The notes below the pieces were generated by a model that was given only the letters and a program-made list of their open reading frames with translations, did not search any database and had not been told where the DNA came from. 64,000 nucleotides of DNA from an uncultured Gammaproteobacteria bacterium (GTDB lineage Bacteria; Cyanobacteriota; Vampirovibrionia; LMEP-6097; CAYGPN01), in NCBI GenBank assembly GCA_964352085.1, contig CAYGPN010000001.1:243426-307425 (forward strand), in the 5' to 3' direction. This document shows positions 38,050 to 54,443 of the stretch, piece after piece; positions within the stretch are counted from its first letter, which is position 1; each line of letters opens with the position of its first letter. Position numbers and translations under genes: made by a program.

Positions 38050-38078
38050 CTTGTTTACTATATCCTATTTTTTTAGAA

Positions 38079-38161
38079 GCCGTAGATTACCTGAAAGCGG
38101 CTAATTATGGCTGCTTGATTTCTCACCTGACCAGGTTCATAGGCTCCCACCAACCTACGGC
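38079..38161 (-). ncRNA. ffs: Signal recognition particle RNA (small, 4.5S type)
   Basis: Minus strand reads GUCAGG-UGA-GAAA-UCA-AGCAGC (domain IV) inside a long hairpin closed by GCCGUAG/CUACGGC; ends approximate. Confidence 0.9.
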
Positions 38162-38301
38162 AATAACCATTATAACTAATTTGCCCAGTATATAGGGTTT
38201 TTCACAAAGAAAACTCTTAGTCATATATATAATCGGTAAATAAAAAAAATTCTTCAGCTAATTAACTGAGTAAAGTTATATTAGAAATTAATTACTCATA
38301 A

Positions 38302-50664: not shown

Positions 50665-50787
50665 GTCATCACGAGGAACGAAGTGACGTGGTGATCCATG
50701 GATTGCTTCGGGCACCTTCGGTGCGGTCGAGGATCTAAGGTCTCTCATATATGCTAGTTTGTGTAAGCCCCGCGTGCTCGCAATGAC
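50665..50787. repeat. Longest copy of the palindromic repeat family, abutting the thrS stop
   Basis: GTCATCACGAG...GATTGCTTCG...CTCGCAATGAC termini; internal GCACC-TTC-GGTGC hairpin. Confidence 0.75.
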
Positions 50788-52772
50788 TATTTAATTTCTT
50801 TATCAGCTATTTCTTTTTTAATTGATTTAATAAAATCAGAAGTGCTCATGGTAGTTTGCTCTTCGCTTCGACGGTGACGAACATTTACTTCATTCGCTTC
50901 TTCTTCTTTATCACCCACAATTAACATATAAGGTATTTGCTGTTCTTGAGCATCACGAATTTTAGCGTTCATTCTTTCTGATCTTGTATCCGTTTTCACT
51001 CGAACTTCATTTTGCATAAGCTCTGCTTTAATTTTCTCAGCGTAATCATTATGCCTGTCAGCAATTGGAATAACCATCACTTGAACTGGAGATAGCCAAG
51101 TAGGAAATGCTCCTGCGTAATGCTCAATTAAAACCATAGTAGTGCGTTCCAAAGAACCATACAATGCTCTATGAATCATCACAGGCTGCTCTTCTTCATT
51201 CTTTGCGTTAGTGTAACTAAGATCAAATCTATCTGGAAGATTGAAGTCAAGCTGGATAGTAGCTCCCTGCCATTCTCTACCAATAGCATCCTTAAGCTGA
51301 AAATCAATCTTAGGACCATAGAAAGCACCATCACCAGGATTGAGCTCATAACTAAGACCAAGTTCTTTAAGCGCTTGTTTAAGACCTTCTTCAGCAAAAT
51401 CCCAAAGTTCATCTCCACCGATAGCTTTTTCTGGTTTAGTAGAAAGTTCTATGTAGTATTCAAAGCCAAGAGTTTTATAAATTTCATCAGCTAATTTAAA
51501 AACATTTTTAACTTCTTCGACATACTGATCGCGGCGACAGAAAATATGCGCGTCATCTTGAGTAAAACCTCTAACACGAGCCAAGCCATGCACAGAACCA
51601 CTAGCCTCGTTTCTGTAAACCGTACCCATTTCTGCCATACGCACAGGAAGCTCTCTATAACTATGTTTCGTGTCCTTGTAAATAAGTACATGAAGAGGAC
51701 AATTCATGGGCTTAAGAATATACTCTTGCTCATCAACGTTTAAAGAGTACATGCTATCTCTATAAAAAGAATTGTGACCTGATTTATCCCAAAGCTCTGA
51801 TTTAGCTATATGAGGAGTAACCACAAATTCATAACCATTCTTTCTATGAAGTTTTTTCCAGTAATCTTCAAGCTCCATTCTGACAGTAGCTAAATTACCA
51901 TGCCACATAACCAAACCTGCACCAGCTTCCTCTTGGTGTATAGAGAAAAGGTCTTGTTTTTTAGCAAGCTTACGGTGATCACGTTTCTCAGCTTCTTCTT
52001 TTCTTTGAAGATACTGTTTAAGCTCATCTTCAGTCCACCAAACAGTTCCGTAGACTCTTTGCATAGGATCTTTTTCTACATCCCCGCGCCAGTTTGTGCC
52101 AGCAACATTTAAAACTTTTATGTGTTTAATAAATTTTGTGTTTGGTATATGCGGTCCTGCACAAAAATCAGACCAAACTTTCTCACCATTATTATCAACG
52201 AAATAATACTCACTAGGATTATGATCTTTATGTTCCGTAGCCAGCTCAGCTTTATAAATCTCACCCTCTGACTTGTATTCAGCGATTCTTTTATCTGGAT
52301 TAGCTATTTCTTCGCGCATTAAAGTATAAGCTCCAGAAGCAAACTTTAAAATTTCTTTTTCAATCTTCACTAAATCAGCATCAGTGATTGGCTTATCACC
52401 AGTTTCAAAATCATAGAAAAAACCATTTTCTGTAGCTGGTCCCACACCAACTTTTGCATGTGGAAAAATCTTTTGAATCACAGCTGCCATTACATGACTT
52501 GTCGTGTGCCTTAGGTACTCATAGCTCTTTTTATCACCAACACAAACGATCTTTACTTCATCACCATTTTCAAGAGGTGCTGTTAAGTCTCTAAGCTCTG
52601 ACTCGCCAGAAACAATCGCTTCAATTCCAATGGCTTTTTTAGCCAAACTTGATGATATAGATTTAGCCAAATCTAAGCCGGTTGAACCAGCGCTGAGGCT
52701 TTTTTCGCTGCCGTCAGGTAGTTTAATTGTGATTTGATCTGCTATTGCTTTTTCCTTAGTTTCTGTGCTCAC
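50787..52772 (-). CDS. thrS: Threonine--tRNA ligase
   Basis: TGS domain, RDHRKL, KPMNCP, RGFTQDDAH, GAFYGPKIDF. Confidence 0.99.
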   Translation of the reverse strand: MSTETKEKAIADQITIKLPDGSEKSLSAGSTGLDLAKSISSSLAKKAIGIEAIVSGESELRDLTAPLENGDEVKIVCVGDKKSYEYLRHTTSHVMAAVIQKIFPHAKVGVGPATENGFFYDFETGDKPITDADLVKIEKEILKFASGAYTLMREEIANPDKRIAEYKSEGEIYKAELATEHKDHNPSEYYFVDNNGEKVWSDFCAGPHIPNTKFIKHIKVLNVAGTNWRGDVEKDPMQRVYGTVWWTEDELKQYLQRKEEAEKRDHRKLAKKQDLFSIHQEEAGAGLVMWHGNLATVRMELEDYWKKLHRKNGYEFVVTPHIAKSELWDKSGHNSFYRDSMYSLNVDEQEYILKPMNCPLHVLIYKDTKHSYRELPVRMAEMGTVYRNEASGSVHGLARVRGFTQDDAHIFCRRDQYVEEVKNVFKLADEIYKTLGFEYYIELSTKPEKAIGGDELWDFAEEGLKQALKELGLSYELNPGDGAFYGPKIDFQLKDAIGREWQGATIQLDFNLPDRFDLSYTNAKNEEEQPVMIHRALYGSLERTTMVLIEHYAGAFPTWLSPVQVMVIPIADRHNDYAEKIKAELMQNEVRVKTDTRSERMNAKIRDAQEQQIPYMLIVGDKEEEANEVNVRHRRSEEQTTMSTSDFIKSIKKEIADKEIK

Positions 52773-52840
52773 GATTACTTAGTATATTACATAATCGTCA
52801 AGAAGCTGCAAATGCCTTAATTTAAAGGATTTTAGACTTA

Positions 52841-52870
52841 TTGCTTTTTATAAACACAAAATGCTAGGAT
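52841..52870 (+). promoter_or_regulatory. Sigma70-type promoter directly before the small ORF
   Basis: TTGCTT, 18-bp spacer, extended -10 TGcTAGGAT; ATG 7 nt downstream. Confidence 0.55.
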
Positions 52871-52877
52871 AGGTATT

Positions 52878-52952
52878 ATGATAATACTTTTATTAAGCAA
52901 ATTAATAAAAGATTGGCTGCGCAAAAGAGAGCAGCAGCAAGCTTCTGCTTAA
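52878..52952 (+). CDS. Putative 24-aa amphipathic peptide MIILLLSKLIKDWLRKREQQQASA
   Basis: Below the ORF-track cutoff; leaderless promoter geometry like other genes here. Confidence 0.45.
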   Translation: MIILLLSKLIKDWLRKREQQQASA

Positions 52953-53529
52953 TAATTGAAGTTTATTTTTAGATCTATTTTTGCTTAGGAATTAGGCTTC
53001 CATTAAAATGACTGTTTCAGATTCCTTTGCCTCTTTCTTCATCTGCTAGCGCCAAATCTATTTTCAGCACAGAGGTTAGAGTGTTGGTTGTCTGTTGAAA
53101 CTCTAGTTGGCTCTAAGGTTGCGCTTCAAATGATTTGGCAGCTAGCATCTTTGCCAGAAGCTAAAGTCATCTAGAGAAGTCATTTTAATGGAAGCCTAAT
53201 TCCACGCTAAAAAAATAATCTGCAAATAAATACTGCAACTAATTATGGTTGAAGCTTTTTTGTTTGCTAATTTTCAGGAAAGGATATTTTGCTAAAACAA
53301 CTCCAGTAGATGACATTAGTTTCTAAGTGAATGAGCAAGCAGGCAAATCCTGTGAGGCGCAATTATTTGTAGTCTAGAATATTTTAACTGTAACTGGCGC
53401 CAAATCTTCTGTGCCAAGCAGTGATTTGCCGCTTGTGAGTGAGCTTGGAAACTAATATCATCTGAAACAGTTGTTTTAGGGAAATGTGCTTTCCTGAAAA
53501 TTTAAGAAATCTAAATAAACTTCAATTAT
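52952..53529. other. Nested long-hairpin element (two long stems inside a 17-bp terminal inverted repeat); structured RNA or palindromic element
   Basis: Perfect 26-bp IR 52988-53013/53178-53203; 14-bp IR 53269-53282/53489-53502 plus further stems; outer IR 52952-52968/53513-53529. Confidence 0.8.
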
Positions 53530-54443
53530 CTATAATTATATCCACCAGGATCTTGGAAACCACCGCCACCATACTGTGAAGGAGCAGCAAAATCTCTACC
53601 TGGAGAAGGAGCATTACGTCTTGGAGCTACATTAACTTGAAGAGGTGAGTCTAACAAGAAAGGAATAGAAAAACCAGATTGAATTACAAACTCTTGACCT
53701 TTTTTAACTGCGCCACCTAAAAGACCAATACCACCACCGATACCAGTACCAATTGCTGAAGCTTTTCCTTTCTTACCACCAGAAATTGCTGAACCGATCA
53801 AACCAGCAAGAGCACCACCACCAGCACCAACAGCAGTTGACTTAACAAAGTGCCCAGCTCTACCGCCAGATGCGCTTAATTGAAATCTCGCTCTATCAAC
53901 ACTTGCAGATAATGGATATCTTTTTCCATCAGGAGTAACAATAGAAGTTAAACGCAAATCTAAAGCGCCAGCTTTACCACCTCTACCTGCTGGAATAACT
54001 GAAACTACTTGTCCTTGAAGAGTTGATCCTGGAGGAGCAACCATCTCACCACCAGCGTAAATTGGAGCATCTAATGCAGCCGTGAAAGTTTCACCAACTC
54101 TTGAAAATTCTGAACTAAGAGTGCTTTGAATTCTCACGGGAACTGGCGTGCCTGCTGGTGCATAAACTACTCTACCTTGAAGAGGAGGAGCGTTATAGCC
54201 TCCACTATTTCCACCACCAAAAAAACCGCCTCTACTATCAGCAGAAGAACCGTAAAAGCCGCCGCCAACTGAATTTGACGAGTCCGCGCCATAGCCATTA
54301 TCAATATTAATTGATTGACTACCATTAGTGATATTTAAAGATTGTGAATCAAAGTATCCTTCAGCCGTTGACGAAGAGATCGTCATAGCCAAAGCTAAAC
54401 TTAGTGCCACTGAACCTTTTAGAATTTTTTTAAGCGATTTCAT
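53526..54443 (-). CDS. Secreted glycine-zipper protein with a TrbI/VirB10-like beta domain
   Basis: Signal peptide; PAGTPVPVRIQSTLSS...VGETFTA...PGSTLQGQV; GAGGGALAGLIG zipper. Confidence 0.7.
   Translation of the reverse strand: MKSLKKILKGSVALSLALAMTISSSTAEGYFDSQSLNITNGSQSINIDNGYGADSSNSVGGGFYGSSADSRGGFFGGGNSGGYNAPPLQGRVVYAPAGTPVPVRIQSTLSSEFSRVGETFTAALDAPIYAGGEMVAPPGSTLQGQVVSVIPAGRGGKAGALDLRLTSIVTPDGKRYPLSASVDRARFQLSASGGRAGHFVKSTAVGAGGGALAGLIGSAISGGKKGKASAIGTGIGGGIGLLGGAVKKGQEFVIQSGFSIPFLLDSPLQVNVAPRRNAPSPGRDFAAPSQYGGGGFQDPGGYNYR

Follow-up and report, generated by a model that had tools for sequence, protein, structure and literature searches.

Between thrS and the gene for a conserved 305-aa protein, both on the minus strand, a 753-nt spacer (52773-53525) houses an element (52952-53529) built around two long hairpins, raising the question of whether this is a regulatory RNA of the thrS locus or a copy of something that has moved through the genome. 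The window analysed here is a stretch of 64,000 nucleotides (C1:243426-307425) of assembly G000, which comprises 2.23 Mb in 32 contigs, has 36% GC and is 93.6% complete. An earlier note on the element had offered two readings: a large structured RNA or 3' UTR able to switch its conformation, perhaps as an RNase III substrate, or two diverged palindromic elements. The features of the locus and of the related copies are collected in Table 1.

The pairings proposed in that note were all present. An inverted-repeat search recovered hairpin 1 with arms at 52988-53028 and 53163-53203 (41 nt, 85% complementary, the outer 26 bp perfect) and hairpin 2 with arms at 53269-53327 and 53444-53502 (59 nt, 81% complementary), the latter with more inner stems in the fold, matching the stacked stems that had been drawn for it. 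The terminal pairing of 52952-52968 with 53513-53529 is 100% complementary over 17 nt, and the alternative, imperfect pairing of the 5' segment, placed near 53213-53230, was found as two inverted pairs (76% and 83%) between 52953-52982 and 53210-53230. The motif said to be common to both halves, CT(A/G)GCGCCAAATCT, lies at 53046 and 53394. When both strands of positions 52940-53540 were folded, the plus strand reached -243.2 kcal/mol (z -17.2; shuffled sequences averaged -139.4 +/- 6.0) and the minus strand -221.3 kcal/mol (z -14.4).

Table 1. Features of the thrS locus and copies of the repeat family in the genome. Positions are those of the window unless a contig is named.
Feature	Position	Strand	Length	Remarks
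thrS (threonyl-tRNA synthetase)	50787-52772	-		tRNA-synt_2b, HGTP_anticodon, TGS and tRNA_SAD domains; downstream gene, 180 nt past the element
Terminator-like hairpin	52933-52949	-		5-bp stem, tail GCTCTCTTTT; consensus match only; immediately past the element
Left terminal inverted repeat	52952-52975			outer 17 nt perfect; family-wide terminus ATAATTGAAGTTTAT
Hairpin unit W_1, subfamily A	52988-53203	-	216 nt	26-bp perfect basal stem; model R1 205 bits on minus strand, 61 on plus
Central junction	53204-53268			degenerate inner terminal repeats of W_1 and W_2
Hairpin unit W_2, subfamily B	53269-53502	+	234 nt	inverted relative to W_1; model R1 200 bits on plus strand, 76 on minus
Right terminal inverted repeat	53513-53529			17-nt pair with 52952-52968, 100% complementary
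TAA stop of the 305-aa ORF	53526-53528	-		inside the right terminal inverted repeat
Gene of conserved 305-aa protein	53526-54443	-		upstream gene; reading frame terminates within the terminal repeat of the element
Double, window copy	52952-53529		578 nt	A+B
Double	C6:3718-4302		585 nt	
Double	C6:32309-32860		552 nt	
Double	C18:21801-22410		610 nt	
Shorter copy	C1:329881-330196		316 nt	94% identical to C6:117467-117789
Shorter copy	C6:117467-117789		323 nt	94% identical to C1:329881-330196
Internally deleted copy	C1:159501-159624		124 nt	
Contig-end copies (n = 4)	C17 end, C21 start, C21 end, C5 end			

Nothing in the element matched an Rfam family at gathering thresholds, T-box included, and the 12 sub-threshold hits (E >= 0.13) were far below threshold, in agreement with the remark that it belonged to no recognised family. 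The sole Rfam match at the gathering threshold within the window is a bacterial small SRP RNA at 38073-38164 on the minus strand (47 bits versus a gathering score of 40). A plus-strand promoter had also been proposed; no more than a 9/12 consensus match lies at 52851-52879, and promoter-like sites in the region are not above chance (3 versus 3.3 expected from shuffles).

Complementarity between the two hairpins (32 nt at 78% and 19 nt at 89%) shows that a single sequence gave rise to both, now diverged and inverted relative to each other, W_1 and W_2 being 58% identical. The alternative pairing of the 5' segment arises because degenerate inner terminal repeats remain at the unit junction, so the mutually exclusive pairings exist, but as a switch they are explained away by decayed inner termini. 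Inner sequence of the junction resembles the outer terminus plus linker of the copy at the end of contig C17. The arms of W_2 carry two different basal-block variants, each mirrored in another copy, and this difference accounts for the G-U pairs in hairpin 2; to judge from the blocks, W_2 is either an old copy or a recombinant.

At least nine loci in the genome are bounded by the same terminus, and together they hold 10 hairpin units of full length and a truncated one, besides four copies at contig ends. The outer 14-mer, TAATTGAAGTTTAT, has 15 exact occurrences, every one at an element end, where simple arithmetic gives a chance expectation below 0.1 in 2.2 Mb. BLAST of each hairpin against the genome returned a full-length relative (C6:32599-32819, 79%, for hairpin 1; C6:4049-4279, 84%, for hairpin 2) together with weaker and partial copies, and a covariance model of the unit, R1, picked out no sequence in the genome other than the truncated unit and the 10 full ones. 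Single-unit forms measure about 290-320 nt and doubles 552-610 nt. The inward sequence is the same for the C17-end and C21-start copies, and likewise for the C21-end and C5-end copies, where either near-identical copies or perfectly palindromic units broke the assembly.

All copies are intergenic and AT-rich, with a GC content (0.36-0.38) similar to that of the genome, and for 7 of 17 element ends the stop codon of an ORF of 100 aa or more lies inside the end or no more than 8 nt away. Conserved small ORFs were not found inside the elements, the longest internal ORFs being of 28-51 aa and not common to the copies. The best-conserved part is the outer terminus (15 nt), while unit interiors fall to 50-60% identity; this is as expected for a DNA recognition site and counts against an RNA specific to thrS. 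The idea that the whole 580 nt form one structured RNA or 3' UTR of the thrS locus, switching its 5' pairing and perhaps cut by RNase III, can appeal to the folding of both strands far below shuffles and to the alternative pairings, but the same architecture recurs at no fewer than eight other loci with unrelated neighbours, and copy number already largely refutes it.

The four complete doubles are all inverted dimers of diverged units, arranged as unit(+) then unit(-), with unit orientation set by an asymmetric conserved motif. This arrangement has a prior of 1/4 among three flip-distinct ones, so that 4/4 gives p of about 0.004 by simple arithmetic. About four unit subfamilies were distinguished, and no two doubles combine them alike: the window copy is A+B, the others are D+B, C+A and D+C. 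The two shorter copies have the terminus and the first bases of an A-type unit in place of the second unit, and from this remnant they look like doubles with one unit largely deleted. Inner junctions of the doubles carry degenerate versions of the terminal repeat. The family is built on a module in which a terminal repeat of 15-20 nt flanks a hairpin unit some 220 nt long. By analogy, the inverted-dimer layout looks like the left and right ends of a transposon after loss of the middle; it could also reflect oriented insertion of one unit beside another. The feature is probably, then, one copy of a dispersed, non-coding, MITE-like family of palindromic repeats, the window copy being an inverted A+B dimer; on this point the suggestion of two diverged palindromic elements was well founded, since the homologous, inverted units belong to a dispersed repeat family.

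The limits of the element are sharp. In contigs of four DNA runs from one study, two of which may be the source of the assembly, similarity between copies breaks off precisely at 52951/52952 on one side and at 53529 on the other (at 53532 in the case of one copy), with the flanks of the other copies attached there. The element was present at the thrS locus in contigs of the four runs, among which no contig skipping the element, no empty site at the nucleotide level and no presence/absence polymorphism was found.

Comparison with relatives points to insertion. Both flanking genes were present on five of the 11 loci fetched, all five from another family (the genome's own family, f1, contains only G000). 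Four of these loci have spacers of -1, 45, 42 and 55 nt, whereas the fifth has one of 727 nt. Given spacers of -1 to 55 nt in four of the five relatives versus 753 nt here, the 578-nt element looks like an insertion. The 727 nt between the 305-aa orthologue and thrS in the fifth relative (L174, G015:C1) are unrelated to the element and look coding; since other sequence fills that spacer, the same spacer appears to have been a landing site more than once.

The 305-aa ORF had no match in Pfam or NCBIfam, and orthologues were found in 30/30 relatives. Because their alignments extend to residues 296-304 of 305, the gene is essentially intact, with its TAA supplied by the element. The element lies right at the 3' end of this gene and 180 nt upstream of thrS, the stop codon now coming from the element itself. 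The terminator-like hairpin just past the element may be the gene's original terminator displaced by the insertion, to judge from its position, and if so the element would be transcribed within the mRNA of the 305-aa gene. This arrangement, with the element between the stop codon and a terminator-like hairpin on the minus strand, makes co-transcription with the 305-aa gene probable and speaks in part for a single RNA; against that stand the lack of any such spacer in four of the five syntenic relatives, the missing Rfam match and the chance-level promoter. The element may be co-transcribed or cut by RNase III, and any effect on the flanking genes would pass through a minus-strand read-through transcript carrying both hairpins.

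Covariation among the genome's own units was strong. Across 10 units with a mean column identity of 65%, RNAalifold predicted 57 pairs, and compensatory double changes were present in 38. For a 61-pair structure, 91.6% of cells pair versus 73.5% in shuffles, a value that 0/500 shuffles reached, and changes on both sides occur in 39 pairs; sliding the partners by 1-3 columns reduced pairing to 50% or less. Two alignments were left out of these counts: a MAFFT alignment of units from this genome (G000) and from a second one, G009, in which the 5' arms were poorly aligned, and a model-made alignment that mixed both strands. Close copies differ mainly by one-sided changes (8 one-sided and 2 double between W_2 and C6a_2), and distant unit copies mainly by double changes. 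This pattern fits palindromic master copies that decay after insertion, together with a force that keeps the masters paired, which could be selection or arm-to-arm conversion.

Folding was also polarised by strand. For all 10 units the better fold is that of the strand with CTGAAAC in its 3' arm, the difference being 1.6-29 kcal/mol; W_1 reaches -98.5 kcal/mol on the minus strand versus -91.6 on the plus strand, and W_2 -114.6 on the plus strand versus -85.7 on the minus strand. The favoured strands in the window double, minus for W_1 and plus for W_2, thus each run outward from the centre. With opposite strands favoured in the two units, one transcript could not contain both hairpins in their better-folding form, which argues against one switching RNA. 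With this polarity, with the alternative pairing accounted for by decayed inner termini, and with copies far from thrS, the claim of one large structured RNA or 3' UTR is not supported, and we regard it as very improbable.

Several features of the favoured strand exceed what a plain DNA palindrome needs. A U.G pair is invariant there (10/10 units), tandem G.A/A.G pairs occur in 9/10 units, W_2 having Watson-Crick pairs at that place, and the 3' strand of the internal loop reads AAAC in 8/10. Such non-Watson-Crick, strand-specific features hint at a single-stranded functional form. Each unit might accordingly act as a single-stranded molecule, either an RNA read outward from the centre or the single-stranded DNA of a transposon end, bound by a protein through the U.G pair, the tandem G.A pairs and AAAC; mobility and function may coexist in such a case. 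The agreement of all 10 units on the same unit-relative strand is consistent with this, as is the near-invariance of the non-canonical features across subfamilies that are only 50-60% identical, with GAAAC kept in G009. It should be considered that the polarity is largely an inherited family trait, so that the 10 units are not independent.

The mismatches bear on this idea from both sides. In the 61-pair structure G.U accounts for 54 cells in 22 columns versus 10 cells in 6 columns for A.C, a count biased toward the favoured strand because structure and alignment were derived on it. A strand-neutral comparison of the arms, counted by hand in the basal stems, gave 21 versus 1 transition mismatches toward G.U on the favoured strand, two or three of the 21 being common to the 94%-identical pair; over whole arms the same comparison gave 43 versus 37 and the bias was gone. 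A conserved promoter upstream of the units in the favoured orientation was not found (a 9/12 match in 2/10 units), and strand-specific C-to-T mutation could mimic selection. The polarity might stem from outward transcription, from a single-stranded state of each transposon end or from mutation that is biased by strand. Weighing these points, we consider it unlikely that the units function as single-stranded molecules.

Evidence on mobility was sought in the flanks and in the transposase content of the genome. The earlier note had taken a high copy number with target-site duplications as the mark of an ordinary MITE; the element is multi-copy, but no consistent target-site duplication was found among the six complete copies (offsets 0-4, lengths 2-9). 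The best flank repeat in these copies was of 4 bp, with 14/24 positions matching and one perfect repeat, CTAA. In the flanks before ATAATTG, A occupies position -2 in 16/17 ends and T position -3 in 11/17 (the genome-wide TA frequency is 0.082), a bias that may reflect a TA duplication or form part of the terminus.

Of the transposase families searched for, DDE_Tnp_1, DDE_3 and rve had no member in the assembly, which is 93.6% complete, and neither the IS110 and RAYT-like genes nor terminus scans yielded a related autonomous insertion sequence sharing the element's ends. Contig C29 (1-1455; L143) holds a complete IS110-family element with a 317-nt non-coding leader and a 368-aa DEDD/Transposase_20 protein, for which the NCBIfam model 'IS110 family RNA-guided transposase' gave 183 bits. 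That this element is multi-copy follows from overlaps of its 55-nt ends with those of contigs C4, C17, C18, C24 and C25 and from a 40-nt match at C6:76804-76843. As the mover of the hairpin element it was rejected, having no ends in common with it. A 16-nt identity between its ORF (C29:879-894) and the C-type units at C1:329881-330196 and C6:117467-117789 was also set aside as probably chance (E 0.003 in a tiny database); it falls in the most conserved stretch of the hairpin unit. Contigs C24 and C25, both short and with ends overlapping the IS110 element, carry ORFs of 570 and 561 aa with near-identical N-termini, by their look putative serine recombinases.

Two RAYT-like Y1 transposase genes were detected at C1:96387-97256 (L144) and C12:70550-71395 (L145), encoding 289 and 281 aa with 44% identity across 174 aa. 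Short inverted REP hairpins, a different set for each gene, stand on both sides of them and have further copies elsewhere in the genome. With both Y1_Tnp genes matching best the REP-associated tyrosine transposase model, and with a strand polarity that would suit a single-strand enzyme, the hairpin element could be imagined as a REP/BIME-type element moved by these enzymes on single-stranded hairpins. But the short REPs of each gene are unrelated to the units, no unit adjoins either gene, and the units are of about 220 nt, not 20-40 bp. Inversion of the units would, moreover, leave the hairpins that such an enzyme recognises on different strands, in contrast to IS200/IS605-type ends. We give movement by the RAYT-like enzymes scarcely any credence.

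Outside this genome the unit is rare. In G009, a genome of the same order but a different family, model R1 found four copies (43-57 bits), single hairpins of about 180-225 nt wedged between housekeeping genes, without the ATAATTGAAG terminus and with copy-specific basal stems; the GAAAC loop strand is kept. In these distant homologues (L157, L158, L160 and L161) the basal stems of about 20 bp are perfectly paired and wholly different between copies, and the interiors of L157 and L160 are about 90% alike. Among 39 relatives R1 found the unit in G009 alone, and the hits were in 1/150 genomes of a class sample and 0/150 of a phylum sample, large searches run with stricter filters and few candidates scored per genome, which may have passed over weak copies. 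The 601-nt element had no BLAST match in 40 relatives, phages or plasmids. So patchy a spread would be less expected of a conserved RNA gene than of a mobile element.

Exact-terminus scans gave 59 loci in the genome collection, with one hit each and in unrelated taxa, four loci without further similarity in the metagenome collection and three single hits in the viral collection; these isolated hits were treated as chance and not as element copies. A single hit of the genome collection came from a related lineage (L119), and it looked like part of a long repeat-free stretch without the element.

Among known systems, prokaryotic MITEs are the general class closest in form. As defined in PMC10969869 (section 2.1), they have terminal repeats of 4-30 bp, are typically shorter than 500 bp, show flanking direct repeats at least in young copies, and are dispersed, non-coding, AT-rich and intergenic, with stable stem-loops and an autonomous IS partner acting in trans. 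Within that description, the elements resemble MITEs in their terminal inverted repeats (17 nt in the window copy), several dispersed copies, non-coding, AT-rich and intergenic nature, stable stem-loops and lack of a transposase of their own. They differ in length (578 nt for the window copy against a typical <500 bp, a soft criterion), in their two inverted hairpin units of about 220 nt, and in having no demonstrable flanking direct repeats and no related insertion sequence among those searched.

In behaviour, Correia and ERIC-type repeats are the nearest by analogy. The Correia elements of Neisseria are transposon-like palindromic repeats whose transcripts form hairpins cleaved by RNase III at the terminal repeats (PMC10969869), a fate like the one suggested in the earlier note. 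Conserved terminal repeats, the lack of a known transposase and frequent location at gene ends are common to both; Correia elements measure about 100-200 bp, form one hairpin each and number more than 100 copies, against 580 nt, two hairpins and about a dozen copies here, and the sequences are unrelated. Correia elements duplicate TA on insertion; a TA-rich flank bias, which may or may not stem from such a duplication, is seen here.

The ERIC/YPAL repeats of enterobacteria (for ERIC, PMC10969869) are likewise imperfect palindromes over almost their whole length, with co-transcription alongside neighbours, which is probable for the present element, and with pairing maintained between copies. 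ERIC differs in being of about 127 bp with a single hairpin and in its lineage, and no separate terminal repeat is described for it. Compensatory evolution in ERIC was reportedly described by Wilson and Sharp in 2006. REP, BIME and REPIN sequences (PMC3733652) likewise place hairpin repeats in inverted pairs, and this genome also has RAYT-like genes with short REPs. Unlike REPs, which are 20-40 bp long and lie on the flanks of their RAYT gene, the units have ten times that length, with terminal repeats separate from the hairpin, and show no linkage to either RAYT-like gene.

A further point of comparison is the layout of the ends. IS200/IS605-derived elements have no terminal inverted repeats and carry subterminal hairpins on the same strand at both ends, unlike the present elements, with terminal repeats, inverted units and favoured hairpins on opposite strands. 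A limited literature search found no description of such repeats in this lineage.

A more radical model would take the units as strand-specific structured modules, read in single-stranded form by a dedicated protein through the invariant U.G pair, the tandem G.A pairs and the AAAC strand of the internal loop, and the dimer as the paired, long folded ends of an undescribed kind of transposon; the ends would act as DNA or as end-derived RNA, and the autonomous form would be unassembled or elsewhere. The chances of this model are small.

Our verdict is that the elements form a new, lineage-restricted family of MITE-like repeats, unusual for their 220-nt units, constant inverted dimer and mirrored polarity with non-canonical pairs. 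The element at this locus is most likely selfish mobile DNA that landed at the end of a gene, and not a one-off regulatory RNA of thrS. It would most likely have arrived by transposition, catalysed in trans by an enzyme recognising the conserved termini, with the outer termini kept intact and the inner ones decaying.

Identification of the repeat family prevents a riboswitch-like structure upstream of an essential gene from being wrongly annotated as a regulator of thrS. The family offers a compact example of an unusual architecture, in which long hairpin units are joined as inverted dimers. Its elements supply stop codons to several genes and broke the assembly at four contig ends, and they would place long double-stranded RNA in read-through transcripts. 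The mirrored strand polarity provides a definite lead, open to test, on the recognition of orphan repeats of this kind.
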